Of a stretch of DNA of 64,000 nt, positions 25,401-42,860 are shown in pieces. Position numbers and translations under genes: made by a program. This DNA is from Spirochaetia bacterium. GTDB taxonomy: Bacteria > Spirochaetota > Spirochaetia > WTKD01 > G963693115. Under the pieces are notes generated by a model, which did not search any database, had not been told where the DNA came from, and saw only the letters and a list, made by a program, of their open reading frames with translations. Position 1 is the stretch's first letter. Each line of letters begins with the position of its first letter. The stretch covers positions 96,001 to 160,000 of the forward strand of contig CBDDCA010000005.1 in the NCBI GenBank assembly GCA_965226055.1. The letters run 5' to 3'.

Positions 25401-27110
25401 CTCGTTTCCTGCATAATCTTTACTCAATATCTTTACTTCGTAGGTCTTTCCTGATTCTAAACTTGCTATTTCTTTATAGAAACGGGTCGCTGGATACTTC
25501 ACTGCTGTCGATGGCAACACTTCGGTATTGGGGGCTTCTTTCTCTGCTACACTTACTAGATATTCTTTTATGTCTTGATTTTTCGCAAGTGTAGTATTTG
25601 GTGCTCCCCACTCTATACGCAACGCTTTCTTGCCTCCTGAAAGTACTACTTTACTGGTGATACTTCCTACGGCATCAGGTGCTTCTGTATCTGCATTTGT
25701 GAGCGTTGTCACTTCTTTTTCTGCTGCTGCTCCTTCGTTATCAGCACTATCAAGCGATACGACTTTCACCTTGTATTTTGTTGCTGCTTCCAAGCCTGTT
25801 ATTTCGGCATTCCTTACACTACTGCTCCTTATCGTCTCTGTCTTTACTACTGTTATCCCTTGCATTACTGTTATCTTTACTCCTGCATAATCTCCTACTT
25901 GCGGTGCTTGCCAGCTTACTATCACTCTAGTTTGCCCTGCTACTACTCCCACATTTGTTACTGTTTCTGTCTGCTTATCGGTGGTTGTTCCTTCTTTCTC
26001 TACTGCCGTATAGTATCTCCCGTTCTTATAGGGTCGCACTATCGCTTTGTAGCTCTGTACTCCATAGAGCTTGGTTACTGCTACGCCATTCTGCCCTACA
26101 TACAGCATCCCTTTTTCTTCTGTCGCATTTGCTACTTGGGCAACACTGTTTTTTGTCACACGGGCATCTGCTACTACTTGTCCCGTGCTTGTCTCTACCA
26201 CTACCAACAGTTCTACTTCACCGCTTACATCGTAATTCCCCCATGTAATAAGCAGACTCTCATCTGCTGCTGCTCCTGTTTTATCTTTTGCTTCTACTTT
26301 TACATTTGATGCTTGTAACGCAGGCACTGCTTCTCCGAGCTTTGAGGGATCTATATCTGTCAATTCTTCTTTTATGCTTGCTTTGTTGCCATTGATATCT
26401 TCATAGACTATCTTTACATCGTAGCGTACATTACTGCTTGTCGCTACCGAAAACGCAAGTTCTCCGCTCTCTATATTGGTTATTTCTTTTTTCGCTACTA
26501 CCTCTCCTGATGCATTTTCTATTTGCACTTCTGCTTTGCTTATATCGGTTTTGCCTTTCCCTAGCCTCTTTGTGTCCCATACTACTTTGAGCTGGTTGTC
26601 TCCTGCTTTCTCTACTCCTACATGAAAAAAGCCATCTTGCGGGGCAGTGGTATCCGCTGCGGTAATAATTTCTTGCGATACCTTTGACGACTTCTGACTT
26701 CCTGATTGCGCTTCTACCTCTATCGTATAGGCGGTATGCTCTTTCAAGCCTTTTAGCTCGTATTTTAGCCTTCCCAAAAAGAGTTCTTTATATTCCTGTG
26801 CGGGTACTGTTACGCTAAAAGACTGCCCTGTAGTGCCTACGGGACTTGCGGTGATGACCACACTGTCTGCTGCTACTGGTGCTTCCCAGCTGAGCTCTAG
26901 TGATCCATTATCTGATACTGATGTTATTGATAAATCTGATACTGACCCAAGTGTTGTCGGTGTCGGTGGAGTAGGATCAGACCCTCCTCCTGATGAACTG
27001 CTACTACTATCTGTACATGCTATGAGTATAGCAGCTATCACTATATATACGAGAAAAGAGAGTTTACCCCCCCCCCCCCACATTTTTTGTGTTATATTAT
27101 TTCTTATCAT
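19431..27110 (-). CDS. Giant surface lipoprotein: FN3-like domains, ~8 copies of a ~135-aa repeat, Ig-like linker, C-terminal DUF285/BspA-like repeats
   Basis: Lipobox ILIA-C followed by S/G/P linker; FN3 patterns (LSWEAP, VSWQAP, ITGLEAATKYKVKV); YTVYGLQKD...YHFV.EVA repeats; (F.QDIS.W.VS.V..M..MF)n at the C-terminus; AAGGAG Shine-Dalgarno. Confidence 0.9.
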   Translation of the reverse strand: MIRNNITQKMWGGGGKLSFLVYIVIAAILIACTDSSSSSSGGGSDPTPPTPTTLGSVSDLSITSVSDNGSLELSWEAPVAADSVVITASPVGTTGQSFSVTVPAQEYKELFLGRLKYELKGLKEHTAYTIEVEAQSGSQKSSKVSQEIITAADTTAPQDGFFHVGVEKAGDNQLKVVWDTKRLGKGKTDISKAEVQIENASGEVVAKKEITNIESGELAFSVATSSNVRYDVKIVYEDINGNKASIKEELTDIDPSKLGEAVPALQASNVKVEAKDKTGAAADESLLITWGNYDVSGEVELLVVVETSTGQVVADARVTKNSVAQVANATEEKGMLYVGQNGVAVTKLYGVQSYKAIVRPYKNGRYYTAVEKEGTTTDKQTETVTNVGVVAGQTRVIVSWQAPQVGDYAGVKITVMQGITVVKTETIRSSSVRNAEITGLEAATKYKVKVVSLDSADNEGAAAEKEVTTLTNADTEAPDAVGSITSKVVLSGGKKALRIEWGAPNTTLAKNQDIKEYLVSVAEKEAPNTEVLPSTAVKYPATRFYKEIASLESGKTYEVKILSKDYAGNESEKTAEVTVPAALAAPSKDGVEGITLDKSGAIRAKVAFKTGPGSSIYYRVRMNEGATVIAEKSITGSTKEVYFGIADGLEVASTEGTAKEYGFFLIEIKGGQVSPATDIASTKLKVWDSVSTAPPMPSAATLKEAQSFKGIYEFSIGTFGASYKTPAGTELSQSQVEYRVYIAEGDHSTLDEIQAESGVRSRVVQGSNSATKHSITFAGEDKKTYTVGVAAINTLNSTKVASGTAGTIKKLTMEGVQAVPPAQSLVNDILAVSKSLTREGTIKIEVTELTAFTNAIDASGNPITNNDGLVYTVYGLQKDTNPANAQEVVSNGRKVAIGSASGGKYTQDGVDKLGLTSETPKVQIAIKGKAQYHFVVEVAVKTDTTKKVYGAVESVTTGSQAKAPLQIAINPLLTVEETNPIPTGTIDLELTELTNFASAQAKDDTGTAITSNAGLVYTVYGLQKDTNPANRQEVITNGRKVAIGSARGGKYTVSGLSKLGLTTDAGGQIDIVERKQYHFVVEVAIKTDVAKKVVGTIKTVVLSSKAVAPAQSLVNDILVVGKSTTVGAVKVDLTVLTQFTNAKDDVGVDITSNAGLIYTVYGLQKTGTAPSIQDIVNNNKKVALGSVSGGKYTINALTTLGASPSVETIQGNRDYYFVAEVAVKTDTTKKVYSTVETVKTASKAVAPQQSSVNDILAVSKSTTVGEVKLEVTVLTSFTGLKADTGAAINDNTGLSYTVYGLQKDTTPTKNEVLAGRKVAIGTVSAGKYTVNSLDKLGLTTDSSAQVGILGNKQYHFVVEVAVATDMTKKVVGNVESVTTDSEAVAPSAGALSGNFSMEQSSSTGAVKLTLRRLTSFTGLKADTGAAINDNTGLSYTVYGLQKDTNPANAQEVVSNGRKVAIGSASGANTAGVYTVEALDKLGLTSDSAAQVSLVVGKQYHFVAEVAVATDKTKKVLSTIESITVSPAVPPEQSLVNNILSLGQSSTVEKLKLELTQLTQFTNAKDSTGQTITDNSDLVYTVYGLQKDTNPANVQEIVSNGRKIAIGTVSGGKYTVEALDKLGLTSDSAAQIDLDGGKKYHFVAEVAIARAPGKRVYSTVQRITVSQAAPLNQSVIADNLTLTTNAGIGGGGISLEVTLATAFTGAKKFDGTSVTANGDLGYKVYMLKDTGSVPTATEVRQGTEINLRPLQQGISLFANSFSFALESATKYHFVVEVAILTDATKVVYSNVKEATSTKSVSQARAPHKALIVNKLAVSQSSPIGAIKLVLTQLSTFSYGSGLDRVETQERGGRNIYDNNKLVYRVFGLQQDTVPAAQEVIDKGSEIALPTLSGSTITGGKYTLNALSTVGGASIKGKRYHFVFQIAVKTDLDVKVVSDVESILVDTLVPAEVNAITFTSISGGANGTATVQWDAPTLGNNYKNKAGTALQASQVSYKVYHAEKGATARTVAQIKAADSSPMTIGANVKTAGLTSLKAGVNYEVVVQAVNSTDTTKMSDGKRAEFKTAQGAAPNTPTVALEANGNTIEVDVTAPSFRGTKTDGTGLTEDELNYTLYYYASTSTLTAAQVKTQAQAEQAKGSNQDAKVGGVKTDVTSKAIYVLGNLNKGQKYFITVEAVNSIINNRSAPTSAESVTTATFTIELQNSNSTYTVGTAITPITITKDPSNATFSCTIDALTKETGLQFSVRDGITGKPNKSNEHDPFIREYKYTLVCTGTGSHAGQQRRSITIQTGLQAVQGKAANYYRPTTKNALRDIIDAEVKAQGNAPNLNMIDTSAITNMENLFDTRDKFVYRNLRKKTFNGDISNWNTSEVTDMFGMFHELEVFNSDISNWNTGKVTDMSLLFNRAFVFDKDISKWNVSKVTDMQQMFYGALKFNQDISDWDVSNVQNMSSMFVSAETFNQDISTWVVNNVQNLTTMFYGALKFNQDISAWVVYNRVKFTSMFEEARAFDQNLSKWNLCLEPGSTVDDKDMFKDSPMYNKKNQYPTILNIRTNPLCRRI
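21280..24660 (-). repeat. Intragenic tandem repeats of ~400-420 bp (six close copies and two divergent)
   Basis: Recurring AV.P.QS.VN.IL...YTVYGLQKDTNPAN.QEV..NGRKVAIG...YHFV.EVA.TD..KKV; identical 80-bp blocks at 22780-22859 and 23197-23276; boundaries approximate. Confidence 0.85.
27067..27079 (-). repeat. G13 homopolymer in signal-peptide coding region (putative phase-variation tract)
   Basis: C13 on + strand; coding strand reads ATG TGG GGG GGG GGG GGT AAA. Confidence 0.9.
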
Positions 27111-27150
27111 ACATCACTCCTTATGATATAATTTTATTTTTATCATTTAC

Positions 27151-27200
27151 ATTATACATATTATTTCCTATTTTGTCAATATAGATAAAAAAAAAAAAAA
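27151..27200 (-). promoter_or_regulatory. Consensus sigma70 promoter with upstream T14 tract
   Basis: Minus strand TTGACA (27179-27174), 17 bp, TATAAT (27156-27151); A14 on + strand at 27187-27200, 7 bp upstream of the -35. Confidence 0.8.
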
Positions 27201-27327
27201 TACACTTTTTTTTATCGCGTTTAATATTTTTGAACCTGACTTCCTTCTTCAACAGAAAGATTAGTATTGTTACCATAGAAAAATTTCAAAAAAATGGAAT
27301 TTCCAAGTAAAAACACTATTTCCACTT

Positions 27328-27356
27328 TTGCCAATAAAATACAGTTATGCTATACT
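27328..27356 (+). promoter_or_regulatory. Sigma70 promoter of leuCD-ilvD
   Basis: TTGCCA, 17 bp, extended -10 TGcTATACT. Confidence 0.6.
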
Positions 27357-27400
27357 ATAGAAATAACTATAATAATAGAAAATAATTATTAGGAGAATAT

Positions 27401-28804
27401 ATGGCACATAACACCTTATTAGATAAAGTATGGAATTTACATAAAGTGAATGAACTTCCAAGTGGAGAAGATCAGCTGTTTATTGGATTACATCTCATTC
27501 ATGAGGTTACTTCGCCTCAAGCGTTTCAAATGATACGAGAAAAGGGCTTACCAGTAAAATATCCTTCCCGTACCTTTGCTACAGTAGATCACATTGTCCC
27601 GACTAATACAGTAGCACGTCCCTTTTCTGATGCTATGGCCGAAAACATGATGAAAGAGCTGGAAAAAAACACGGTAGAGTTTGGCATTCCTTTTTTCAAT
27701 CATCAAACAAACAAACAGGGAATCGTACATGTTATTGGCCCTGAACTTGGACTTACACAGCCGGGCATGACCATTGCATGCGGAGACAGCCATACATCCA
27801 CCCACGGAGCATTTGGTTCTATTGGGCTTGGTATTGGTACATCTCAAGTACGCGATGTATTTGCCACACAATGTATTTCAATAAAAAAACCAAAAGTAAG
27901 AAAAATACAAGTCGATGGAACATTACAAGATGGCGTATATGCAAAAGATATTATTCTTGCTATTATTTCAAAACTAGGAGTAATGGGAGGACTTGGCTTT
28001 GCCTATGAGTATGCAGGAACAGCTATAGAAAAACTAAGCATGGAAGAGCGCATGACTATATGTAATATGAGCATTGAAGGAGGAGCGAGAGTTGGGTATG
28101 TAAATCCAGATGAAATAACATTTTCTTACATAGAAGGACGACAATATGCTCCTAAAGGAGAAGAGTTTGAGGCAGCAAAAAAATACTGGAAAGAGATAGC
28201 GTCTACAACAAACTCAGAATATGATGATATATTTTCCCTTGATGCAAATACACTGACTCCAATGCTCACATGGGGCATTACTCCTGGACAAGCTATGCCC
28301 ATCAATGAAACTACCCCTGCATTAGATACTCTTGACGAAGATACAAGACAGCTTACAGAAAAAGCCTTGCAACATATGAAATTCAAAGAAAAAGAAAGTC
28401 TTTTGGGGAAAAAAATTGATGTAGCGTTTATTGGTTCTTGTACAAATGGACGTTTAAGCGATCTTCGTGAAGCAGCAAAAATACTAAAAAATAAAAAAGT
28501 GCATAATACTGTGCATGCGTTTGTAGTTCCCGGTTCGCAGCAAGTAGCAAAAGCTGCTGAAGCCGAAGGCTTACATGAAATTTTTATGTCGTCAGGCTTT
28601 GAATGGAGAGGATCAGGCTGTTCTATTTGTTTAGGTATGAACACTGACAAATTAAAAGGAGACGAACTGTGTGTAAGCTCATCAAATAGAAATTTTATAG
28701 GAAGACAAGGTTCTCCCACAGGACGCACAGTACTTATGAGTCCTTCAATGGTAGCGACCGCAGCTATTTATGGAAAGATAGAAGATGTAAGAAACATACT
28801 TTAA
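27401..28804 (+). CDS. leuC: 3-isopropylmalate dehydratase large subunit
   Basis: [62 protein letters not shown]. Confidence 0.96.
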
Positions 28805-28832
28805 TACAGTAAACTATAGAAGGAGCGTTACA

Positions 28833-29444
28833 ATGAGTAAAATATTACATGTTAAGGGATATGGAATAGTAGTACGAGGAAATGATATTGATACTGACCA
28901 AATTATTCCTGCCCGATTTTTGAAAGCAATAACCTTTACAGGAATTGAAAAATATGCATTTTATGATCTACGATATAATGAAGATGGGAGCAAAAAAGAT
29001 CATCCCTTTAATGATGAAAAATATGCAAAAAGCAATATTATGATAGTGAACAATAACTTTGGTTGTGGTTCATCACGAGAACATGCCCCTCAAACATTAC
29101 AAAGGCATGGCATAGACGCTATTATTGGAGAATCATTTGCCGAAATCTTTGCTGGTAACTGTACCGCTCTTGGCGTTCCAATACTCATTCTTAGCCGAAA
29201 AGAAATACATGAAATCCAAGATATGATAGAAAATGATCCGTCTATTCCTATAGAGATTAGCATAGACAAGGCACACATTACTATTGGAAAAACGGTATAT
29301 ACTTCTTCTATAAAAAAGGAAATACAAACAACATTCTTACAAGGCACATGGGATAACACTACACTCATGCTATCATTCAATGAAAAAATTGAAGAAACAT
29401 ATAATCGTCTTCCTTATATTCAACATTTTAAGGGGTATAAATAG
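28833..29444 (+). CDS. leuD: 3-isopropylmalate dehydratase small subunit
   Basis: [31 protein letters not shown]. Confidence 0.96.
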
Positions 29445-29452
29445 GTATACAT

Positions 29453-31141
29453 ATGGCAGAGATGACAGGAAAAAATTCTTATAGTAAAACAATGACAGAA
29501 GGAGTAGCAAGAACTCCTAATCGTGCTATGCTTCGTGCTATTGGCATGAAAGATGAAGATTTTAAGAAGCCTCTTGTGGGTATTGCAAGCGCTGGAAGTG
29601 AAGTGAGTCCTTGTAATTTTCACCTTAATGCTATATCTGAAATATCAAAAGAAACACTAAAAACATTAGGGAGCTACCCTATGCTCTTTAATACTTTTGT
29701 GGTAACTGATGGTGAAGCTATGGGACACGAAGGAATGAAAGCGTCTCTTGTTTCACGAGATACTATTGCGGACGTTATAGAGCTTGTAGTGTACGGTCAT
29801 CAAATGGATGCTGTATTAGGCGTTGGAGGATGTGATAAAACTATTCCTGGCACAGTTATGGGCATAGCTCGTATGAACAGACCTTCTGTATTTGTATACG
29901 GAGGCACTATTCGTGCTGGCATATGGCATGGCAAAAAACTCGACATTGTTTCTGCCTTTGAAGCGGTAGGAGCGTACAGTGCAGGAAAAATTACCGAAGA
30001 AGAGCGTTACGAAATAGAATGCCATGCATGTCCTGCTGCAGGTGCTTGTGGAGGAATGTACACTGCCAATACTATGGCTTCTGCTATGGAAGCAATAGGC
30101 ATAAGCATTACAGGAAGTGCCTCAGTGCCTGCAATAAGTGATGAAAGAACACATATTATGCAAGCATCTGCTGAAGCCCTTGCCATTTGTATAGAAAAAA
30201 ATATTACCCCTAACAAAATTTTAACACGAAAAGCATTTGAAAATGCTATACGTACCACAATGGCATTAGGAGGATCTACAAACGCAGTACTGCATTTACT
30301 AGCTATTGCAAACGAAATGCAAATATGCCTTGATATTGATGATTTCAATACTTTTTATGATAGCACTCCTATACTTACTAATATGAAACCAGCAGGCAAG
30401 TATGTCATGGAAGATCTCCACAGCATTGGTGGTGTACCTATCGTTATGAAAATGCTTCTTGACAAAGGGTTGCTTCATGGTGATTGTCTCACGGTAAATG
30501 GAAAAACTATTGAAGAGAATTTAAGCTCTGTCACTGTTCCTCCAGTACAAGAAGATGGGGTAGTAACATCATTTAAGAAACCTGAACGAACAAAAGGCCC
30601 TATTGCTGTATTAAAAGGCAATCTTGCTCCTGAAGGAGCAGTACTAAAAATGTGTGGGTCTCACTCAGAAATTGATCATAATGGTCCTGCGAGAGTATTT
30701 GACAGTGAAGAAACTGCATTAGATGCAATATTGAACAATCGTATTACTAAAGGAGATGTTGTAGTCATACGCTACGAAGGACCAAAAGGTGGGCCGGGCA
30801 TGAGAGAAATGCTATCTCCTACTGCTGCAATAGCAGGGGCAGGTCTCCAAAAAGATGTAGCACTCATTACTGATGGTCGTTTTTCTGGAGGGAGTCATGG
30901 CATAGTAGTAGGCCATATTGCTCCTGAAGCTCAAAGCGGAGGTGTTATTGCACTGCTTAAAGATGGAGATATTATTCGTATTCAGTCATCAAATAAAACT
31001 ATAAGCGTAGATATCTCAGAAGAAGAACTCACACAAAGAAGAAGCAATTTGCAAACTCCAAAAGAACGCTTTACAAAAGGAGTTTTTAAGAAATACTATA
31101 ATTCGGTACAATCAGCAAGTAAAGGAGCTATCACAAGCTAG
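29453..31141 (+). CDS. ilvD: Dihydroxy-acid dehydratase
   Basis: [55 protein letters not shown]. Confidence 0.94.
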
Positions 31142-31202
31142 CTCCTTCTTAAAAAAAAAGTTATTGTTCCTTTTTTATTTTTACATTTACTTCTCTTACT
31201 AC

Positions 31203-31907
31203 TTATACAGAAACAGTAGTACATAGTGTACACTGTGGATGTGTATGTATAACATGAGCTGCAGGATACAGTACTGTGGTATTGGGATCAAGCACATTTT
31301 TTATCATCTCACGTTTATCTTCTCCAGGTACATAAAAAAACGCGTGCTGAAATGCAGAAAGAGCATGAAAAGTAAGCGATACTCTTACATAGCCTACATG
31401 TGCGGTATCGCTCATAAAGACATAGTGTGATGAAGAAGGTGATACATGTTCTTTTGTTTGAGGAAAGATAGATGCAGTGTGACCATCCCCTCCCATCCCA
31501 AGTAACGCTATTGCTGCAACATATTGTTGCGGAGCATCTAATAATGATACCATAGTATGTTGATACTGCTCTGCAGCATCCGATGCTTGTACTGGAATAG
31601 GAAAAAAAGTAGCTCCATAAGACAGCAATCTTTCACAGCTCTGTTGGATCATGTTTTGGTTGCTATCTTTATGAGTAGGAGATACAACCCTATCATCCAC
31701 TTGTACTAACACAAGACGTTCTGCAAAAGAAATAACAGTATCGTTATGCGATAATGCTGTAAGTAATTTTTTAGGACTATTTCCTCCTGACAGAGCAATG
31801 AGCAATTTTTTATCAGTATGCTTGTCTGCTATTACCTGTAACAGCGTAGCAATGGTATCACTACAACGAGTGTCTACTGTTTGACTATCATATGTTAAGC
31901 GTTCCAT
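31203..31907 (-). CDS. pgl: 6-phosphogluconolactonase
   Basis: ALSGGNSP, VDDRVV, DSN, LLGMGGDGHTASIFP; operonic with zwf. Confidence 0.9.
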   Translation of the reverse strand: MERLTYDSQTVDTRCSDTIATLLQVIADKHTDKKLLIALSGGNSPKKLLTALSHNDTVISFAERLVLVQVDDRVVSPTHKDSNQNMIQQSCERLLSYGATFFPIPVQASDAAEQYQHTMVSLLDAPQQYVAAIALLGMGGDGHTASIFPQTKEHVSPSSSHYVFMSDTAHVGYVRVSLTFHALSAFQHAFFYVPGEDKREMIKNVLDPNTTVLYPAAHVIHTHPQCTLCTTVSV

Positions 31908-33400
31908 TGTCGTTTATCCTTTTCAAGCAACTGCAATGCTTCAACAGGTCCTGCAGAGCCTGTAGTATAGGTATATAAAGGAATTTTTCGTCTTGATTTT
32001 TTCCATGTATGAAGAATAGAATCAGCAAAACGCCACTGCGAAAATAATTCATCACTTGACAAAAATAATGAAGCATCATTTATCATAGCACTAAACAATA
32101 TTCTATCGTAGCCATTACTATAGTCTATGTCCTTAAATGCATCTTCATAAGGAAAATTCAAATCAGTAGGAATAATTTGTAATGTATTACCGGGTATTTT
32201 TGTTTGAACATTCAAACGAATAAATGTTTCGGGCTGAATACGAAATACAAGCCTGTTAGCGTCCAAGTGTATTTTCTCATTATCAGCAGTATTACGAAAA
32301 ATATTATGAGGAACTTCCTTAAAATACACAACAAGCTCCGTACATTTCTCCTGAAGTGCTTTTCCTGAACGTATATAAATAGGCACTCCTGACCAACGCC
32401 AGTTATCGACATATGTTTTCAATGCAATAAATGTTTCTGTTTTAGAATCTTCTGGGACACCTTTTTCTTGTAAATACCCTTCATATTGAGCACGAATAAC
32501 ATTTGTTATGACTTCATTTGCATTGTTATATATACGCAAACTTGAGAGTACTTTATGCTTCTCATTGCGTACACTCTGTGCAGAAAAATCCTTTGGAGGT
32601 TCCATAAGAGCCAACGCAAGCATTTGTAATGCATGGCTCTGTACCATATCCTTTAACATACCCGAAGAATCAAAGTAGCCCGCTCTATTTTCCACACGAA
32701 TTTTCTCATTCAATGATAACTGAATATGATCAATATATCGTGAGTTCCATAAATTCTCAAATAGAGAGTTTGCAAAACGGAAAAATAAAATATTTTGTAC
32801 AGGTTCTTTGCCTAAATAATGATCTATAGAATATATTTGAGCTGGATCAAATATATTTGTAATAAAACGATTAAGTTTGACAGCAGAGATATAATCTTCA
32901 CCAAAAGGTTTTTCAAGAACAATTCTTGTATAGGGTTGTTGTCCAATTTTAGTATGAGCAAACTCCTTTCCTCCTGAATTTTTAGTAATAAGTGAAGATT
33001 CTTTTAAGGCTTTGCTTACATTTCTAAACTCTCCCGGAGGCAAGGATAGATAAAAAATACGATTAAGAGATTGATTTGGAACAACCGATAATATATTTTT
33101 TATCTCAGGACATACTGCGTACTGTCCTGAAACATAATGTACAATATCAAGAAATTGAGCATCGTATTTTTTTGTCTTACATAGTTCTTCTTTGTAGCTT
33201 TCTGTTGTAAATTTAGTGCGTCCATAACAAATAATATGAATAGGATCTGGCAATAAACGCGAAACATACAAAGCATGTAACGAAGGAAGCAATTTTTTCT
33301 TAGCGAGATCCCCTGAAGCCCCAAAAATGATAAGACTTACTCCTTTATGAGGACTGACCTGTTCATCAAAATTAGCAACTAAATGTGTATCGGTTGACAT
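31895..33400 (-). CDS. zwf: Glucose-6-phosphate 1-dehydrogenase
   Basis: IFGASGDLAKKKL, EKPFG, IDHYLGKE, DMVQSH, WRWSGVPIYIRSGK. Confidence 0.96.
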   Translation of the reverse strand: MSTDTHLVANFDEQVSPHKGVSLIIFGASGDLAKKKLLPSLHALYVSRLLPDPIHIICYGRTKFTTESYKEELCKTKKYDAQFLDIVHYVSGQYAVCPEIKNILSVVPNQSLNRIFYLSLPPGEFRNVSKALKESSLITKNSGGKEFAHTKIGQQPYTRIVLEKPFGEDYISAVKLNRFITNIFDPAQIYSIDHYLGKEPVQNILFFRFANSLFENLWNSRYIDHIQLSLNEKIRVENRAGYFDSSGMLKDMVQSHALQMLALALMEPPKDFSAQSVRNEKHKVLSSLRIYNNANEVITNVIRAQYEGYLQEKGVPEDSKTETFIALKTYVDNWRWSGVPIYIRSGKALQEKCTELVVYFKEVPHNIFRNTADNEKIHLDANRLVFRIQPETFIRLNVQTKIPGNTLQIIPTDLNFPYEDAFKDIDYSNGYDRILFSAMINDASLFLSSDELFSQWRFADSILHTWKKSRRKIPLYTYTTGSAGPVEALQLLEKDKRQWNA

Positions 33401-33420
33401 GTTTTTCTTACTCCACTACC

Positions 33421-34827
33421 CTACAAGGATTCCCACTCAGTATGAAAATCTCCTTCCTTATCAATTCTCTTATATGTGTGTGCGCCAAAAAAATCTCGCT
33501 GTGCTTGAATAAGGTTTGCTGGCAAATGCTTTGTTCGTAAACCTTCTAAATACCATAAGGACGTTCCTAGTGCAGTTGCTGGCAATGCATTTTCAACACA
33601 AAGAGCAAGCACCTTTCTTACATGTGCAAGATTATCGCGCACCCGTGTTAAGAAAAAATTATCCTGTAACAGAGTAATTACATTTTTGTCTTTTAATGCA
33701 CGAGACATTTCATCAAGCATAGTTGAACGGATAATACATCCATTACGCCAAATTTCTGCAATAGCAGAGTAGTTTAAGCCAAAATTATATTCTTCATCTG
33801 CTTGACGTAGCATATAAAATCCTTGTGCATATGCAAGAATTTTTCCAGCCAGCAATGTCTTTTCTAAAAGTGAAAAAATTTCTTCTTTTGATGGAATAGG
33901 AACTTGTACTGTTTCTTCCTTGAATAAGGCACTAACAATATCACGTAATTCTCGACTACTAGAAATATAGCGACTATCAAGAGCAGCAGAAATAGCAGGA
34001 AGCGGTGCTCCTAAACGTGCGGCTTCTTGAATTGTCCACATTCCTGTCCCTTTCCCTTTTGCTTCATCTTTTATTTTATCTACTAATATATCCCCTGTTT
34101 CTTCATCTTTTACCGTAAGAATTTTTCGTGTAATATCAATAAGGTAAGAATTTAAGTCAGTAGTACTAAAATAATCAAATAGCTCTACTTGTTCTTGCGG
34201 AGTAAACTTAAAGACATGCTTTGCTATGTCATATATTTCAGCAATAAGTTGCATATCAGCATATTCAATGCCATTATGTACCATCTTTACAAAATGTCCT
34301 GCTCCCCCTGTTCCCATAAAATCTACACATGGAGCTGGATCTTGAGCTGCTACTTTTAATAAATACGGAGCAAGCTCATCATATACTTCTTTTGCTCCAC
34401 CAGGCATAAGAGATGGTCCTTCAAGAGCTCCTCTTTCTCCCCCAGATACTCCCATCCCTAGAAATCGAATATTTTTTTTCTTAAGTTCAGCTTCACGTCT
34501 GATACTGTCACTAAAAAATGAATTTCCTCCATCAATAATAATGTCATCATTTTCAAGGTACGGTACTATATTCTCAATCATAGCGTCTACAGCAGTACCT
34601 GCTTGTACAAGTAAAATAATTTTTCTAGGACGCTCTATTAACTGAACAAATTCCTCCATCGTCTTTCCACCAAAAATTGGTTTTTCTGAATTTTCCGCAA
34701 CAAATTTTTCCATCTTTGATGTGGTTCTATTGAACACTGCTATTGGGATACCTTTGTTGGCAAAGTTTAATACAAGATTTTGCCCCATGACCGCTAACCC
34801 AATAAGTCCTATTTTCGCTTGTGACAT
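33421..34827 (-). CDS. gnd: 6-phosphogluconate dehydrogenase (decarboxylating)
   Basis: GLAVMGQNL, IDGGNS, GVSGGE, VKMVHNGIEY, KGTG, QAQRDFFGAHTY. Confidence 0.97.
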   Translation of the reverse strand: MSQAKIGLIGLAVMGQNLVLNFANKGIPIAVFNRTTSKMEKFVAENSEKPIFGGKTMEEFVQLIERPRKIILLVQAGTAVDAMIENIVPYLENDDIIIDGGNSFFSDSIRREAELKKKNIRFLGMGVSGGERGALEGPSLMPGGAKEVYDELAPYLLKVAAQDPAPCVDFMGTGGAGHFVKMVHNGIEYADMQLIAEIYDIAKHVFKFTPQEQVELFDYFSTTDLNSYLIDITRKILTVKDEETGDILVDKIKDEAKGKGTGMWTIQEAARLGAPLPAISAALDSRYISSSRELRDIVSALFKEETVQVPIPSKEEIFSLLEKTLLAGKILAYAQGFYMLRQADEEYNFGLNYSAIAEIWRNGCIIRSTMLDEMSRALKDKNVITLLQDNFFLTRVRDNLAHVRKVLALCVENALPATALGTSLWYLEGLRTKHLPANLIQAQRDFFGAHTYKRIDKEGDFHTEWESL

Positions 34828-34978
34828 ACATACTCCTTATATAATTATATTTCTCAATAAATATAGTATACCATGAATATACAGTATCCTTCAAGTGTAG
34901 TTTTGAAATTTTAGAAATTTTACGGAATACTGATTTTACCAAAAGAGATCATACGAAATGGTAAAAGTACATTTTTTA

Positions 34979-35012
34979 AGGAGCTATTATCTCACATAAG
35001 ACAATAGCTCCT
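34979..35012 (-). terminator. Stem-loop 3' of the second giant lipoprotein gene
   Basis: 14-bp stem AGGAGCTATTGTCT / AGATAATAGCTCCT on the minus strand (one G-U pair), 6-nt loop; lacks a clear U-tract. Confidence 0.5.
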
Positions 35013-35037
35013 CCATATCCAAGAGTATACTTATGCT

Positions 35038-38000
35038 CTATTTAGAAGATGGTCCTGTATAGGTTCCTCCTGCCCAATCTGGTGTCTTATGTCTTATAGC
35101 AGTACCAGCAAATGCATTTGTCGCATTAACCTTTTTTGATCCAAAATGATCTTTCCATTCATAGAGATCTCTATCAAATGCTGTTGCACCAGCAAACATC
35201 TCAAACATATTAGTAAGACTGCTGACATCCCACCCTGCTATATTCCTATTAAACGCATGATTGTCATAAAACATACCTTTCATATTTTCAACTTTACTTA
35301 CATTCCAGCCTGATATATTCGCACTAAATGGCCGATAGTACAACCCATAGGATGAAAACATATATGCCATATTCGTAACATTACTTACATCCCAGCCTCC
35401 TATACGACTATTAAAACCATCTGTGTTTGAAAACATATAGCTCATATCTGTCACTTTCCCTACCTTCCAGTCTTTTATATCTCCCCTAAATGATGAACCA
35501 TGAAACATATCTCCCATATCGGTAACATTACTCACATTCCACCTTGATATATCTCCATTAAATTTCGATCCACGAAACATATCTCGCATAGTGGTAACAT
35601 TACTTACATCCCAATTTGATATATCCTTATTAAAACTCGAACTATAAAACAGACCTTTCATACTTGTCACATTCCCTACCTTCCAGTCTGATATATCTCC
35701 ATTAAATCTTGAATTACGAAACATACCATACATAAATTTCACATTATCTACCTTCCATTTCGATATATTCCCCTTAAATGATGTATTAAGAAACATATTA
35801 CTCATATCGGTAACATTACTCACATCCCACCCCGATATATCTCCCTTAAATGATGATGTATGAAACATACCTCCCATATCGGTAACATTACTCACATTCC
35901 AACCTGATATATCCCCATTAAATTTCGATTTATAAAACATACCTCTCATATTTGTCACTTTATCTACCTTCCAACCCGATATATCTCCGTTAAATGACGA
36001 TGTACTAAACATACTTTCCATATCTTCTACTTTATCTACCTTCCAGCCCGATATATCTCCGTTAAATGATGTATCAAGAAACATATTACTCATATCGGTA
36101 ACATTACTCACATTCCACCTTGATATATCTCCAGTAAATTTCGATGCCTGAAACATTTCTTTCATGGTTGTAACATTACTCACATCCCACCTTGCTATAT
36201 TCCCATTAAAATTCCTCAAAAAAGGATCATTAAATACCTTACTCATATCCCTAATATTTCCTGTGTATATGACATTCAAATCTGCTCTATTATTAGTAGA
36301 TATCATCTGCCTTATTGCTTTTATCAATTCTGCTTTATTCGTAGGTTGATATTGATATGTCCAGCTTGGTATTTTATCATTAGGTATCTTAGTCTTATCA
36401 AATATCCCTGGTATGTTTATTTTCCTTCCTGCTACATGCTCTCCCCATGATTCCAAATCTTGATTAAACTCTGTTGCTCCGTTAAACATATATTCCATAG
36501 TAGTTACTGTATCAACTGCCCAGCCCGATATATCTTGATTAAAGGCAGTTGCCTTGTAAAACATATAATCCGTATCGGTAACTTTCTTTACATTCCACCT
36601 TGATATATCTCCATTAAATTGCGCATAGGCAAACATAAAGTACATAGTAGTAACATTACCGACATCCCAACCCGATATATCTTTAGTAAATGGCGAATCA
36701 TAAAACATTGCTTCCATATCAGTAACATTACTTACATCCCATTTCGATATATCCCCATTAAATTGCGATTTATAAAACATATGTTTCATATTACCAACAC
36801 TACTTACATCCCAATCTGATATATCCCCATTAAATTGCGATTCACGGAACATCCAATACATCTGTTCTACATCACTTACATCCCAGCTTGATATATCTCC
36901 AGTAAACTGCGATTTATAAAACATACCTTGCATATAGCTCACATTGCTTACATCCCAGCTTGATATATCTCCAGTAAATTGACTCTCCTTAAACAAATTT
37001 CGCATATTGACAACATTACTTACATCCCAGCCCGATATATCCCCATTAAAACTTTTCAAAGCACTGTCATAAAATACCTCACGCATATCTGTTATGTATC
37101 CTGTATATATTCCATTCAAGTCTGCTGTGTTCCCATCAGGGTTACCATCCCCATCAGCATCTGCTGCCATCACTGTTTTTATATTTGCTATCAAAGCATT
37201 CTTTGTTTTTGGGTAATATGTATATGTACCACTACCGTCATGTATGTGTATGGTAAACTCTTTTGTACGCCTTTTTCCTGCATAATCACCAGTCCCTGTA
37301 AACACAATTATATATTTTCTCAGTGCAAGTGCTTTTGTAGGACTTCCGCTTATCAATCCACTAGCTCCACTTCCTCCACTAAATGTCAAGCCTGTGTCTG
37401 CAGTAAAGGTACTTGGCAGTATACTATAGTCCCCTGTCGCATTAAATGTACTCACTCCAGTATTAGTCAATGGAATACTAATGTTCTGTTGCCCTTTTAC
37501 CATAGTAAATAATGAAGCAACATTGCCTCCATATGTCTGTGATATGCTATATATCCAGCTTGGTATATTTTCATCAGAAACATTAGCATCGGTAAATATA
37601 TTTCCCTTATCCACTGTTCTTCCTGCTATATGCTCTCCCCATGCTTCTAAATCTTGATCAAACGCTGTTGTTTTGCGAAACATATTTTTTATAGTAGTTA
37701 CACTATCAACTGCCCACCCTGCTATATCTCCATTAAATTGCGAAAACCAAAACATGCCATACATATTCCTCACATTACTTACCTTCCACCTTGATATATC
37801 TCCAGTAAATTGCGACTTATAAAACATTGTGTCCATATCGATAACATTACTTACATCCCATTCCGATATATCTCCATTAAATGGCGTACCCCAAAACATA
37901 TGTCTCATATTACCAACACTACTTACATCCCATTCTGATATGTCTCCAGTAAATGGCGTTTCATAAAACATTGCTTCCATATCAGTAACATTACTTACAT

Positions 38001-41000
38001 CCCATTTCGATATATCCCCATTAAATGGCGTTCTATAAAACATATAGCGCATAATAGTAACATTACTTACATCCCAACCCGATATATCCCCATTAAATTT
38101 TGATTGATAAAACATTGTTCGCATAGTGGTAACATTACTTACATCCCAATTTGATATATCTCCATTAAATGACGAATCATAAAACATAGATCGCATGGTT
38201 GTAACATTACTTACATCCCATTTCGATATATCCCCATTAAAACTTGTTAAGTCATCACTAAATAACTCACGCATATCTGTAATATTCCCCGTGTAGATGA
38301 CATTCAAATCGGCACTGTTATCATTAGGACTCCCATCATCATTAGTATCCATCACATCCTTTATCGCTGCTATCAACTCCGCTTTATTGGTAGGAGAGTA
38401 ACTATACTTTCCTGCTGCTACTGTCATGATAAATGGTATCTCATAGCTTTTGCTTGCATAGTCTCCTGTTCCACTAAAGAGCAGTGTATAGCTTTTTGTA
38501 CTTTGTACTTTTGTTGGACTCCCACTTATCGCTCCTGTACTTGCATCTAAGCTAAGCCCTATATCTGTTATGCTCGGAGAGATAGTATAACTCCCCACTG
38601 CCGTAGTAGGCAATTTCTTACTTACTGTTATTGCACCATCTGCTTCTATGGCTTTGCCTACAAACCCACTTATAGTACTGCTTTCGGTTCCTCCAACTGT
38701 AAGCACAAAATCGTAGAGCCATGTAGGTATGTTTTTATCAGAGAGTATCACTCCACTATTATCTGCGGTATTGAATATTTTATCAGTATTTACTGTTCTT
38801 TCTGCTATATGCTCTCCCCATGCTTCTAAATCCTTATCAAAGGCTGTTGCCCCTTGAAACATTGACTCCATAGTAGTCACAACATCAACTGCCCAGCTTG
38901 ATATATCTTGATTAAATGCTCCTGTTTCACTAAACATCTGTTTCATAGTAGCTACCTTGCTTACATTCCAATAGGATATGTCCTTATCAAATGCTGTGTT
39001 CTTATAAAACATTAATTCCATATCTGCAACATTTCGAACATCCCATAGGGTTATATCATTGTTATACGCTGTTTCTCGAAACATCTCGTTCATAGTTGTG
39101 ACATTCCTTACATCCCAGCCTGATATATCCCCTGCATATGACGACTTCTTAAACATATCATTCATATCTGTTATGTTCCCTACATCCCAACTTGTTATGT
39201 CTCCATTTTCTCCTGTAAACTTCGATTCTTCAAACATACTGTCCATCGTAGTTACATTACTGACATCCCAGCCCGATATATCCCCATTAAAATTTCTCAA
39301 GGCACTCTCATTAAATATCCCACTCATATCTGTTATATACCCTGTATATATGACATTCAAGTCTGCTGTATTCCCATCAGGGTTACCATCTCCATCAGCA
39401 TCTGCTGCCATCACCGTTTTTATATCTGCTATCAAAGCTGCATTTGTTTTAGGGGTATAAGTATAAGCACTCACATCCTGTATCGTGAGAGTGAGAGGGG
39501 TACTTTTTTTCCTGCCAACATACCCTCCATTTCCTGTAAATGTTATGGTATACTCTTTTGTAGCCAATGCTACCGTAGGAGAACCACTTATCTCTCCAGT
39601 TGCTGTATCAAATATCAACCCTGTATCTGTAGTAAATGTAGTGGGTACTACACTATAAGTTCCTGTTGCTGCTTTTGGTGTTTTGTCAATAGACAGAACA
39701 ATATTTTTATCACTCGTAGTGAACACTTTCTTATTTACTGTAACGCCTGTATCTTTGTACACAAGAGTATATACCCATGATGGAATTTTTTCATCAGGCA
39801 AATGAGAAAATATGCCTGTTATATCCAGTGGTTTTCCTGATTCTGTTATCTCTGGTATATGCTCTCCCCATGCTTCTAAATCTTGATCAAACGATTTTGC
39901 ACTATTAAACATCTCCTCCATAGTAGTGACTTTCTCAACATTCCACCCTGATATATTTTGATTAAAAGATTTTGCTGATGCAAACATTTTCTTCATCCGT
40001 GTAACATCACGCACATCCCACTTTGATACATCTCCATTAAATGGCGAAGCATAAAACATATATCCCATATCGGTAACATTACTTACATCCCAATCCGATA
40101 TATCTCCATTAAATTGCGAAAGCCAAAACATGCCATACATATCCCTCACATTACTTACCTTCCACCTTGATATATCTCCAGTAAATTGCGATTCATTAAA
40201 CATACCATTCATAGCTATTACATTACTTACATCCCAATCCGATATATCTCCAGTAAATGGCGAACCCCAAAACATAAATCTCATATCACTAACACTACTT
40301 ACATCCCAGCCCGATATATCTCCATTAAATTGCGAATTCATAAACATTGATTCCATAATGGCAACATTACTTACCTTCCACCTTGATATATCTCCAGTAA
40401 ATTGCGAGCCACGAAACATATTACTCATACTTGTTACTTTGCTTACCTTCCAGTTTGATATATTGCCATTAAATGATGTACCAAAAAACATATATTTCAT
40501 AGTAGTTACATTACTTACATCCCAACCCGATATATCCCCATTAAATTGCGATTTATAAAACATGGCGTACATGTTTGTAACATTACTTACATCCCAACCC
40601 GATATATCCCCATTAAAACTTCTCAAGACACTGCCATGAAAAACAGCACTCATATCTGTAATATTCCCTGTATAGATGATATTCAAGTCTGCTTTATTAT
40701 CATCTGGCGTCCCATCACCGTTTATATCCATTACCTTTTTTATTGCTGCTATCAATTCTGTTTTGTTATTAGGGAAATATGCATATTTCCCTTGATTTGC
40801 CTTTACTTCTAATGAAAATGGGATAACAAGACTCTTGCCTTGAAACTTAGCGTCTCCAGTAAAAGTAATTGTATATGCTTTTTTTGCTACTTCTTGTGTT
40901 GCTATTCCTTTTATTATTCCCTTTTGTGCATCAAATGATAATCCTGTATCTGCGGTAAATGTATTAGGTGCTATACTATATTGTCCTGTCGCATGTGATG

Positions 41001-42750
41001 GAAATTGCTTTTTAATCCTCACTACTATGTTTTGATACTGCAACACAGTAAGATCGTTTATGCTTGCTTCTTGATATACCACATCAAACACATATGCCCA
41101 TGTAGGTATCTTTTCATCAGATACACTAGAGCTATCAAATATATCTGTTTTATCTACTGTCCTTCCTGCTATATGCTCTCCCCATGCTTCCAAATCTTGA
41201 TCAAATGCTTTTGTTGAATTAAACATATTCTCCATAGTAGTTACCGCATCAACTGCCCAGCCTGATATATCCTGATTAAAGGCAGTTGCTCCTTCAAACA
41301 TACCATCCATAATGGTAACTTTCTTTACATCCCATTGCGATATATCGCTATTAAATTGTGCAGTATGAAACATCTCTTTCATATCTCTCACGTTACTCAC
41401 AACCCAAATTGATATATTTCCATTAAATCGCGATCCACGAAACATCTCTTTCATTTCTCTTACATTACTGACGTCCCAACTTGATATGTCCCCAGTAAAT
41501 TGTGAATCACGAAACATACTATTCATTTCTCTCACATTACTTACATCCCAGCCTGATATATTTCCATTAAACTTTGATCCTCGGAACATCTCATTCATAT
41601 ATTTCACTTTACTGACATCCCAGCCCGATATATCTCCAGTAAAATGTTTCAGCATACTATCATTAAATATACCACTCATATCAGTAATGGCACTGACATC
41701 AATGCTATTGAGATCTGCTGTAGCATTATCAATAATCCCATTCCCATCAGCATCTACTATCACTTTTATGAGTGCTATCAGCTCTGCTTTTGTCTTAGGT
41801 TGTGTCGAATAATCCTTCACTGATACCGATACAGCTGCTTGCACATTTTTATTTACTGCTTTATCAAATTCTCCTGTCCCATTAAAAGTAACAGTAAACC
41901 TGTGAGGACTTCCCTTTGTTATCGTCTTAAGGTCTCCTGCATTTGCTGTTATTGTCCCTGTCGTGCCATCAAAATTCATCCCTGTTGGAAGTACATCTCT
42001 CCCTGCCAACACTGGGAGTAATGCAAATGTTCCTGTTGTTGTTACTGGCCACCGAGTGATAGACACATTCACTGCCCGCCCTACTATTGCCACCACTACC
42101 TTTGGCTCTAACAGCACCTCTAATGTCAACCATCTGGGATCCTCAGTAACCCCCGAATTCTTAAATACATCTTTACTCACTTTACTTACCGCAGGTGCTA
42201 CTGCCCATTGCTTCAGATCCTGAGTAAAAGCAGCTGTTCCTTCAAACATGCTGTTGATCTGTTTTACATTACTTACATCCCAGCCTGATATATCCCCATT
42301 AAATTTGGTCGCTCCCTTAAACATAGTATTCATGTTTGTTACTTTGCTTACATCCCACCTTGATATCCCTCCACGAAACTCTGTCACTCCTTCAAACATA
42401 CCACTCATATTTGTTACATGGCTTACATCCCACTCCGACACATTGCCACTAAAGGTAGGAAACTGGACAAACAAATTACTCATATCAGCAACCTTACTTA
42501 CATCTATATCGTTTAAGTCTGCTGCCATATCTTTACTTAATCGCTCAGAGATAAGCTGTAATAATTGCGACTTTGAGCTAGGCTGTACCTTTCCTCCACC
42601 CCCTCCAGGAGCAGGAGAAGATCCTCCACTAGAGCCCCCTCCTGGATCTTCACAGCCCAGTAATAGTAGTACTAGTACCAATAGTAGCATTACCCCCCCC
42701 CCCCCCATATATACAGCATTGCTATGTATAAACAAATTATTTTTTCTCAT
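35038..42750 (-). CDS. Giant surface lipoprotein with seven DUF285/BspA-like repeat modules separated by Ig-like linkers
   Basis: Lipobox LLLG-C plus G/S/P linker; dozens of 22-aa units F.GDIS.WDVSNV..M..MF; start placed at ATG 42750 (MRKNN) after AAGGAG rather than the ORF-track start at 42774. Confidence 0.92.
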   Translation of the reverse strand: MRKNNLFIHSNAVYMGGGGVMLLLVLVLLLLGCEDPGGGSSGGSSPAPGGGGGKVQPSSKSQLLQLISERLSKDMAADLNDIDVSKVADMSNLFVQFPTFSGNVSEWDVSHVTNMSGMFEGVTEFRGGISRWDVSKVTNMNTMFKGATKFNGDISGWDVSNVKQINSMFEGTAAFTQDLKQWAVAPAVSKVSKDVFKNSGVTEDPRWLTLEVLLEPKVVVAIVGRAVNVSITRWPVTTTGTFALLPVLAGRDVLPTGMNFDGTTGTITANAGDLKTITKGSPHRFTVTFNGTGEFDKAVNKNVQAAVSVSVKDYSTQPKTKAELIALIKVIVDADGNGIIDNATADLNSIDVSAITDMSGIFNDSMLKHFTGDISGWDVSKVKYMNEMFRGSKFNGNISGWDVSNVREMNSMFRDSQFTGDISSWDVSNVREMKEMFRGSRFNGNISIWVVSNVRDMKEMFHTAQFNSDISQWDVKKVTIMDGMFEGATAFNQDISGWAVDAVTTMENMFNSTKAFDQDLEAWGEHIAGRTVDKTDIFDSSSVSDEKIPTWAYVFDVVYQEASINDLTVLQYQNIVVRIKKQFPSHATGQYSIAPNTFTADTGLSFDAQKGIIKGIATQEVAKKAYTITFTGDAKFQGKSLVIPFSLEVKANQGKYAYFPNNKTELIAAIKKVMDINGDGTPDDNKADLNIIYTGNITDMSAVFHGSVLRSFNGDISGWDVSNVTNMYAMFYKSQFNGDISGWDVSNVTTMKYMFFGTSFNGNISNWKVSKVTSMSNMFRGSQFTGDISRWKVSNVAIMESMFMNSQFNGDISGWDVSSVSDMRFMFWGSPFTGDISDWDVSNVIAMNGMFNESQFTGDISRWKVSNVRDMYGMFWLSQFNGDISDWDVSNVTDMGYMFYASPFNGDVSKWDVRDVTRMKKMFASAKSFNQNISGWNVEKVTTMEEMFNSAKSFDQDLEAWGEHIPEITESGKPLDITGIFSHLPDEKIPSWVYTLVYKDTGVTVNKKVFTTSDKNIVLSIDKTPKAATGTYSVVPTTFTTDTGLIFDTATGEISGSPTVALATKEYTITFTGNGGYVGRKKSTPLTLTIQDVSAYTYTPKTNAALIADIKTVMAADADGDGNPDGNTADLNVIYTGYITDMSGIFNESALRNFNGDISGWDVSNVTTMDSMFEESKFTGENGDITSWDVGNITDMNDMFKKSSYAGDISGWDVRNVTTMNEMFRETAYNNDITLWDVRNVADMELMFYKNTAFDKDISYWNVSKVATMKQMFSETGAFNQDISSWAVDVVTTMESMFQGATAFDKDLEAWGEHIAERTVNTDKIFNTADNSGVILSDKNIPTWLYDFVLTVGGTESSTISGFVGKAIEADGAITVSKKLPTTAVGSYTISPSITDIGLSLDASTGAISGSPTKVQSTKSYTLLFSGTGDYASKSYEIPFIMTVAAGKYSYSPTNKAELIAAIKDVMDTNDDGSPNDNSADLNVIYTGNITDMRELFSDDLTSFNGDISKWDVSNVTTMRSMFYDSSFNGDISNWDVSNVTTMRTMFYQSKFNGDISGWDVSNVTIMRYMFYRTPFNGDISKWDVSNVTDMEAMFYETPFTGDISEWDVSSVGNMRHMFWGTPFNGDISEWDVSNVIDMDTMFYKSQFTGDISRWKVSNVRNMYGMFWFSQFNGDIAGWAVDSVTTIKNMFRKTTAFDQDLEAWGEHIAGRTVDKGNIFTDANVSDENIPSWIYSISQTYGGNVASLFTMVKGQQNISIPLTNTGVSTFNATGDYSILPSTFTADTGLTFSGGSGASGLISGSPTKALALRKYIIVFTGTGDYAGKRRTKEFTIHIHDGSGTYTYYPKTKNALIANIKTVMAADADGDGNPDGNTADLNGIYTGYITDMREVFYDSALKSFNGDISGWDVSNVVNMRNLFKESQFTGDISSWDVSNVSYMQGMFYKSQFTGDISSWDVSDVEQMYWMFRESQFNGDISDWDVSSVGNMKHMFYKSQFNGDISKWDVSNVTDMEAMFYDSPFTKDISGWDVGNVTTMYFMFAYAQFNGDISRWNVKKVTDTDYMFYKATAFNQDISGWAVDTVTTMEYMFNGATEFNQDLESWGEHVAGRKINIPGIFDKTKIPNDKIPSWTYQYQPTNKAELIKAIRQMISTNNRADLNVIYTGNIRDMSKVFNDPFLRNFNGNIARWDVSNVTTMKEMFQASKFTGDISRWNVSNVTDMSNMFLDTSFNGDISGWKVDKVEDMESMFSTSSFNGDISGWKVDKVTNMRGMFYKSKFNGDISGWNVSNVTDMGGMFHTSSFKGDISGWDVSNVTDMSNMFLNTSFKGNISKWKVDNVKFMYGMFRNSRFNGDISDWKVGNVTSMKGLFYSSSFNKDISNWDVSNVTTMRDMFRGSKFNGDISRWNVSNVTDMGDMFHGSSFRGDIKDWKVGKVTDMSYMFSNTDGFNSRIGGWDVSNVTNMAYMFSSYGLYYRPFSANISGWNVSKVENMKGMFYDNHAFNRNIAGWDVSSLTNMFEMFAGATAFDRDLYEWKDHFGSKKVNATNAFAGTAIRHKTPDWAGGTYTGPSSK
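35160..42510 (-). repeat. Intragenic arrays of ~66-75-bp units (DUF285 repeats)
   Basis: Many near-identical ACATTACTTACATCCCA...GATATATC(T/C)CCA(T/G)TAAA...AAACAT units on the + strand; boundaries approximate. Confidence 0.9.
42693..42706 (-). repeat. G14 homopolymer in signal-peptide coding region (putative phase-variation tract)
   Basis: C14 on + strand; coding strand reads ATG GGG GGG GGG GGG GTA ATG. Confidence 0.9.
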
Positions 42751-42860
42751 ATGTATCTCCTTACTTTTTTTCAAAAATATTCAATATTGTATATAATAAA
42801 CTATATTACATAATATTACAATACTGTTTCTGCGATCACCACGAGTTCAAGGACTAAATA

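Follow-up and report, generated by a model that had tools for sequence, protein, structure and literature searches.

Why do two genes for giant lipoproteins each carry a long, uninterrupted run of guanines in the part that encodes the signal peptide? The genes, referred to here as gene 1 and gene 2, lie in a 64,000-nucleotide stretch of the genome of a Spirochaetia bacterium (GenBank assembly GCA_965226055.1, contig CBDDCA010000005.1, positions 96,001 to 160,000). We call this whole stretch ‘the window’, and positions given without a contig label refer to it. Gene 1 (19431..27110, minus strand) encodes a lipoprotein of 2559 amino acids and 272 kDa; gene 2 (35038..42750, minus strand) encodes one of 2570 amino acids and 286 kDa. 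The answer that we consider probable is that both are contingency loci, in which slipped-strand mispairing at the run switches translation ON and OFF (phase variation). The DNA directly demonstrates the anatomy of the runs, the consequences of their length for the reading frame, the differences in length among copies and from one genome to the other, and the fact that OFF copies keep their long frames intact.

The runs appear on the plus strand as C13 at 27067–27079 and C14 at 42693–42706. On the coding (minus) strand they are G13 in gene 1 and G14 in gene 2, each followed directly by TAA. Both genes are ON in the assembly, with frames that are open across the runs: G13 is read as Gly4, and TAA occupies the +1 register; G14 encodes Gly4 and begins a valine codon with its last base, and TAA occupies the −1 register. 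In both leaders, the charged n-region precedes the run and the hydrophobic core follows it (MIRNNITQKMW-GGGG-KLSFLVYIVIAAILIAC in gene 1; MRKNNLFIHSNAVYM-GGGG-VMLLLVLVLLLLGC in gene 2). We computed the outcome for all run lengths within two bases of those observed. In gene 1, G14 leads to TAA at once, and G12 to 8 extra codons and then TAG; in gene 2, G13 leads to TAA at once, and G15 to TGA at the lipobox. Both wrong registers of both genes thus meet a stop 0–13 codons past the run, before the lipobox, and gain or loss of a single unit terminates translation early. Both runs are well within the range, from approximately 7–8 bases upward, in which G/C runs are hypermutable in length. They are not ordinary coding sequence, either, since GGG accounts for just 7–28% of the glycine codons in six window genes. 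The longest other G/C run in the window, which is 35.7% G+C, is 6 bases. The sequence-only reading that preceded this analysis had described the two tracts, their positions, the TAA that follows, the in-frame state of both genes, the four frame-shift outcomes and the lack of any comparable run elsewhere in the window, and each of these statements held when it was recomputed.

Around the runs are the usual signals for expression and export. Gene 1 has a ribosome-binding site, AAGGAG (27117..27122, minus strand), 6 nt before its ATG, and a promoter-like site, TTGACA-17-TATAAT (27151..27179, minus strand), that matches the consensus at 12 of 12 bases. The start of gene 2 was taken as the ATG at 42750, 6 bases downstream of AAGGAG (42757..42762, minus strand); the list of open reading frames (ORFs) prolongs the gene to a TTG at 42774. 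Upstream are a run of A7 in the 5′ untranslated region (42765..42771, minus strand) and a promoter-like site, TTGTAA-17-TATTAT (42793..42821, minus strand), that matches at 9 of 12 bases and is conserved across the leader family. A second possible ATG for gene 2, 13 bases before the run and in another frame (42710–42722, minus strand), would be in frame at G12 or G15; we judged it unlikely because it has no ribosome-binding site and its n-region would be uncharged. It is not present in the paralogues.

The predicted signal peptide of gene 1 (27015..27110, minus strand) has basic residues R3, K9 and K16 and the lipobox LIAC, with Cys32 as the predicted lipidated residue; that of gene 2 (42652..42750, minus strand) has R2, K3 and LLGC, with Cys33. 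These assignments were made by eye with the lipobox rule. The genes lgt and lspA are both present in the genome, above their profile cut-offs. Both proteins belong to the PARCEL/DUF285 family (PF03382): they score 292.8 (gene 1) and 1657.9 bits (gene 2) against a curated cut-off of 25, and 61.3 and 515.2 bits for the NCBIfam model TIGR02167, for which the cut-off is 30. Gene 2 is built of PARCEL/DUF285 blocks (21 matched stretches) that alternate with He_PIG immunoglobulin-like (Ig-like) domains. Gene 1 has FN3 domains toward its N-terminus, a PARCEL/DUF285 block toward its C-terminus and, in the center, eight tandem modules of ∼140 amino acids without a Pfam match. A structure predicted from the alignment of the eight modules (pLDDT, the predicted local distance difference test score, 91) gave weak matches in the PDB, mostly to FN3 folds (E ≥ 0.015, template-modeling scores 0.3–0.45); on this model, the modules look FN3-like.

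How, then, might the proposed switches work? Transcription would begin at the sigma-70-like promoter, and translation at the ATG behind AAGGAG; 10–15 codons in, the ribosome would cross the 13–14 guanines. In register, the run would encode Gly4 as a linker that joins the n-region of the signal peptide to its hydrophobic core. Export and lipidation at Cys32 or Cys33 would follow, and a surface protein of PARCEL/FN3/Ig type, ∼270–285 kDa in mass, would be displayed. Slipped-strand mispairing during replication would from time to time add or remove a G. One wrong register would then present the immediate TAA, and the other TAG or TGA 8–13 codons on; in either case the stop would precede the lipobox, so nothing would be exported. 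A further slip could reverse the change, and the state of either gene would be independent of that of the other. A second slippery run of gene 1, a poly-T tract upstream of the −35 hexamer, may add a transcriptional layer, and run-bearing 5′ modules would spread among paralogues by recombination. That slippage takes place in living populations, and that both proteins reside at the cell surface, we infer.

Long runs are not confined to these two genes. The genome (2.25 Mb in 6 contigs, 35% G+C) has G/C runs whose numbers fall smoothly with length to 8–9 bases; beyond this is a separate class of 32 runs of 9–20 bases, comprising G9, G11, G12, three G13, thirteen G14, ten G15, G16, G18 and G20. 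The mode of this class is 14–15 bases (23 of the 32). Lipoprotein signal-peptide leaders account for 21 of the runs, and these leaders fall into three families. The main family has 15 runs, in leaders of the form ...KKI-G(n)-VHSRYKQNL...LVGC, and its proteins are ∼1550–1600 amino acids long; the leader families of gene 1 and gene 2 have three runs each in this genome. Of the other long runs, four are poly-C runs near the starts of HsdS-like genes, two lie where duplicated genes end, two pairs are intergenic or associated with short ORFs, and one follows a methylase-like frame. Only a quarter of the evaluable leader runs (5 of 20) are in frame: 2 of 14 in the main family, 2 of 3 in the gene 1 family and 1 of 3 in the gene 2 family.

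This abundance is peculiar to the genus. A pattern search of 40 related genomes for runs of at least 11 bases, of which there are 31 here, found 42 in G001, the sole congeneric genome, and 0–4 in each of the 39 others. A sample of 400 further genomes from the phylum had mostly 0–5 long runs each, and a few genomes had many. From the two richest, G059 and G423, we took samples of 15 out of 83 and 15 out of 63 places, respectively. In G059 the sampled runs belong to a different, intergenic hairpin cassette; in G423 they occur in mixed contexts, some of them at contig ends. The proposal in the sequence-only reading that the runs might be a genome-wide device of this lineage is therefore borne out, with 21 leader runs here, 42 runs in G001 and 0–4 in the 39 relatives. 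Its proposal that gene 1 and gene 2 share a single export leader is not. They have two separate leader families, of three copies each in this genome, and neither belongs to the 15-copy main family. Searches with each leader recovered its own family only; cross-matches between families extend for ∼30 bases, the G run and its immediate flanks, and the common part is a T-G(n)-TAA core.

Comparison of paralogues and of the sister genomes shows that run lengths vary while the flanks are conserved. The gene 1 family has five copies, three here and two in G001, that are 87–96% identical from promoter to gene. Their G runs are 13, 15, 15, 18 and 15 bases long, which places two copies in frame and three out of it, yet every one of them retains an open frame of 2522–2559 amino acids. 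The stop that follows the run directly is TAA in this genome and TAG in G001. Homology among the copies begins ∼20 nt upstream of the poly-T run and ends ∼50 nt past the stop codon, which defines a discrete cassette of ∼7.8 kb. No run-bearing syntenic orthologue of gene 1 was found in G001: on the leuC side the two genomes are syntenic, at 97% identity, as far as ∼27322, and synteny is broken in the interval ∼27220–27322. Among four more run-bearing loci that were examined for synteny in G001, three lost synteny at the run-bearing gene, and one was an orthologous pair; this pair, of family A, has G13 here and G16 in G001, and is in frame in both. Length thus varies within the gene 1 family and between the members of the family-A pair; neither window gene has a syntenic orthologue that carries a run.

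Gene 2 does have a syntenic orthologue in G001, a gene for 2617 amino acids with matching neighbors (gnd on one side, ORFs of 195 and 489 amino acids on the other). Its leader, MRKNNFFIHSKGVILLLILAVLLGC, has no run. Across the two genomes the gene 2 family has nine leaders: three with G14, all in this genome; two with interrupted G-rich stretches, GTGGGAGGA and GGGGAGGGG; and four without any G stretch. All six of the leaders that lack a homopolymer are in frame. Two of the three run-bearing copies are out of frame, and each keeps the long frame in another register. They are out of frame despite having the same G14 because of a one-base difference upstream, AATCTG in the paralogues for AATGCTG in the window copy. 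The 5′ module of gene 2 (−109 to +1351) is 97% identical to those of the two paralogues, and 87% identical to that of its own orthologue (78% in the 301 bases that surround the leader), whereas the adjacent housekeeping DNA is 97% identical between the two genomes. A module that is closer to its paralogues than to its orthologue indicates that the run-bearing module has been exchanged among paralogues in this genome. Since run-free, interrupted and full-length forms coexist in the family, and the orthologue is run-free, the family offers a natural series for the birth, spread and locking of a contingency locus. G001 also contains a mosaic gene (L035/L126, C1 ∼1733 kb) in which a gene 1-type promoter, with T17 and TTGACA, stands before the gene 2-type leader GGGGAGGGG, in frame.

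The long runs could also act at the level of RNA. Stuttering by RNA polymerase, or ribosomal frameshifting, on G13–G14 would produce a fixed, small in-frame fraction and, with it, low, graded expression. Long homopolymers are sites of RNA polymerase slippage, best documented for A/T runs. ‘Riboshifting’ has been raised as an alternative for a poly-G lipoprotein gene of Mycoplasma agalactiae (PMC2824730), and the finding that 15 of 20 leader runs are out of frame with their long frames preserved fits constant, leaky expression too. However, run lengths differ in the DNA, between copies and between genomes, which means that the DNA itself does slip on an evolutionary time scale; and the immediate TAA leaves no room for recovery of frame in one register. 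The two processes can act together. As the explanation of these loci, we rate RNA-level slippage as unlikely.

A more prosaic explanation is that the run lengths, and with them the ON and OFF states, are assembly noise, and that the genes encode ordinary, constitutive lipoproteins with a glycine linker. Homopolymers of 13–20 bases are hard for every sequencing platform, the contigs of several public sequencing runs stop at or near the G runs, and 23 of the 32 lengths cluster at 14–15. Against this, two assemblies made independently, and one contig from a public run, agree on where the runs lie, and the other window genes are not shifted. A glycine linker, moreover, would not need to be pure GGG, which is little used here (7–28%, as above), and the run-free paralogues and the syntenic orthologue do without these glycines, which indicates that the linker is not needed for export. 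Noise alone seems to us very doubtful.

Several facts do count against phase variation, and should be weighed with it. The ON and OFF calls rest on homopolymer lengths in a metagenome-assembled consensus of few contigs, and may be one base off. The public data, six runs from three studies that cover most of the region, are Logan contigs, which cannot show minority lengths; the contigs of four runs were compared with the window. One contig, from public run X2, spans the gene 1 run with C13 exactly, and X2 may be the source sample; one from X4 has an additional CC at 27066, in gene 1, and could derive from the G15 paralogue at C4:62955. None of the public-run contigs shows a change of length at the gene 2 run, and the three run-bearing copies of the gene 2 family are equal in length, at G14. 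Finally, MutS1 and MutL are intact, and so heightened slippage is not attributable to loss of mismatch repair. We considered such a loss as a cause, and rejected it: both proteins exceed their cut-offs, in genes free of stops, in this genome and in its sister, G001. Other contigs are evidence neither way, as their ends fall beside the runs (X4 pieces end at 27065 and start at 42718; X6 pieces start at 27314 and 42808). At the A7 run of the gene 2 untranslated region, the contigs of X2, X6 and X7 have one extra base and that of X4 has two; two paralogues have A9.

The notion that the out-of-frame members are decaying pseudogenes, and their runs mutational scars of a shrinking accessory family, we find the most improbable: many copies are out of frame, one in-frame family-A copy stops after 543 amino acids, and the genes are located at synteny breaks, but both window genes are in frame, the position of the run is conserved across families and genomes, and each OFF copy of gene 1 or gene 2 type has a single defect, at the run, followed by 2473–2552 open codons. 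Whatever their register, the run-bearing copies of these two types keep frames of 2473–2559 amino acids.

Phase variation at the G run may not be the only variable feature of gene 1. The poly-T run (27187..27200, minus strand), which the sequence-only reading did not mention, is T14 on the coding strand and lies 7 nt upstream of the −35 hexamer. In the gene 1 family as a whole it is T14, T17 and T20 in this genome and T15 and T19 in G001, always 7–11 nt upstream of TTGACA-17-TATAAT. All five copies have the promoter-like site, whose second hexamer varies slightly, and the spacer is 17 nt throughout (computed for the window copy, and counted by eye for the other four). In the Vlp system of Mycoplasma hyorhinis, the genes for variable surface lipoproteins have a poly-A run in the spacer that separates the −35 from the −10 hexamer. 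In the porA promoter of Neisseria, a poly-G run between the two hexamers alters their spacing, as summarized in a report on Treponema pallidum (PMC7864442). The runs in these systems change the spacing of the hexamers; the poly-T run of gene 1, in contrast, lies outside the −35/−10 interval and leaves a constant spacer of 17 nt, and so we rejected a spacer switch of the Vlp/porA type. The run probably tunes transcription, and any such effect would operate through upstream contacts or DNA bending.

Poly-T runs of 12–30 bases number 29 in the genome, and only the three of gene 1 type precede a poly-G run within 170 bases. Most of the 29 occur just upstream of a conserved, promoter-like cassette (...cagatataacacaaaaaatagtattttt.ctataat...; examples are at G000:C5:246055, C5:320404, C5:660788 and C6:818031). 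Alongside the G runs, this set forms another family of slippery runs, on the side of transcription.

The flanks of the G runs have a signature of their own. TA directly follows 31 of the 32 long runs here and 42 of the 42 listed in G001, and a pyrimidine precedes. Among G runs of 3–8 bases, TA follows 9–19% and A precedes 34–57%; no A stands before any of the 32 long runs. This flank pattern, pyrimidine-G(n)-TA, spans at least 8 unrelated contexts, on both strands, including the three lipoprotein leader families, the N-termini of opposite-strand hsdS genes, glycosyltransferase tails, the methylase and intergenic sites. In the main and gene 1 families, the 9 bases that follow the run agree at 8 positions, and are read in different frames. 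Selection for stop codons explains this signature only in part. It is conceivable, and in our view rather unlikely, that the genus installs its runs, by way of a portable DNA module or of a sequence-specific process that would seed and maintain ∼14–15 guanines. If so, new contingency loci would be made by copying and not by chance.

How do these loci compare with those already known? Signal-peptide switches of this kind are textbook material for Neisseria: in pilC of Neisseria gonorrhoeae, a poly-G run in the region that encodes the signal peptide switches translation. Campylobacter jejuni has tens of poly-G/C contingency genes per genome and, to our knowledge, Campylobacter is without MutS1/MutL-type repair. 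The proteins and lineages are unrelated to those described here, and MutS1 and MutL are both intact here.

The nearest precedent is in Mycoplasma. MAG1330 and MAG3260 of M. agalactiae belong to the same PARCEL/DUF285 family, and their genes, which encode surface lipoproteins, carry poly-G in the 5′ part of the coding sequence (PMC2996958). In the P48-like lipoprotein gene MAGa1620, a change of one base in a G10 run restores the signal peptide and lipobox, and P68 of M. bovis is likewise described as a poly-G lipoprotein case (Nouvel et al., PMC2824730). The Mycoplasma runs in these accounts are G8–G13, in a wall-less Mollicute, and those here are G13–G20, in a spirochete with an outer membrane. 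The present lineage, moreover, has at least three leader families, 21 such genes per genome, proteins of 1500–2570 amino acids and one family with a promoter-side poly-T run.

Among spirochetes, the documented poly-G tracts are those of the promoters of T. pallidum. Tracts at tprE/G/J, tprL and tp0126 are heterogeneous in length within isolates, by fragment-length analysis; the resemblance is that of a spirochete whose variable poly-G runs affect putative surface proteins (PMC7864442). The differences are equally clear. The T. pallidum runs are G7–G11, are situated within or next to promoters and affect transcription, and their targets, Tpr beta-barrel proteins and an OmpW homologue, are not lipoproteins (PMC7864442). 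The runs described here are within the sequence that encodes the signal peptide, and it is the reading frame that they affect. A full-text search of open-access papers found no description of leader-located poly-G runs in spirochete lipoproteins. What we describe is an established mechanism, here at large scale and in a new lineage, with the PARCEL lipoproteins of Mycoplasma, for which such switches have been proposed, as its closest counterpart. An uncultured spirochete lineage has ∼20 giant lipoprotein genes per genome with coding-region poly-G; the runs are unusually long (G13–G20) despite intact mismatch repair, and in one gene family they are stacked with a promoter-side run. Automatic annotation of metagenomes will label most such genes as frameshifted pseudogenes. 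Two matters deserve further attention: the flank signature and, for the gene 2 family, how the run arose and spread.

Other features of these genomes may be noted. The neighbors of the two genes in the window are housekeeping genes, leuCD, ilvD, pgl, zwf and gnd, and no other window gene is frameshifted. Upstream of leuC in G001 (L127:1000-1420), where gene 1 sits in this genome, is what appears, by eye, to be the C-terminal part of an IS30-type transposase. Outside the window, the four HsdS-like genes with poly-C runs (at G000:C1:13372-13389, C3:96327-96340, C4:27722-27736 and C6:662400-662419) encode ∼380–390 amino acids, with the N-terminus MSKQDKK...P(n)...IRFKQDDGS.FPDWEERRLG; they were labeled by eye. 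Their runs are 14–20 bases long and lie a few codons past the start, three in frame and one out. From these sequences, the genes look like phase-variable specificity subunits of type I restriction systems. The methylase-like frame (...GRQYIGIEQ...) is followed, out of register, by G15 at G000:C6:565977-565991, also outside the window; G13 or G16 would lengthen the frame by ∼100 residues, and nothing in the sister genome corresponds to the part that bears the run.

Among the other genomes, G017 (of the same class; complete, 2.3 Mb) has MutS1 and MutL matches below cut-off (best E-values 6.8e-24 and 8.3e-6) and four poly-G runs of 15–20 bases. G059, a distant spirochete, has 83 poly-G runs of at least 11 bases, many of them in tandem arrays 1.2–2 kb apart (e.g. 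G059:C1, 226727-238681, L138-L150). Most of the sampled runs are followed by a conserved cassette of a hairpin plus a T run, ggagcgatcaactccgatttttt; this is a different poly-G system. The present organism is a spirochete on two grounds. By RpoB, its nearest relatives are metagenome-assembled genomes of uncultured Spirochaetia, with a best identity of 67% among named records. Its genome has three FlaA genes, versus none in 14 control genomes.

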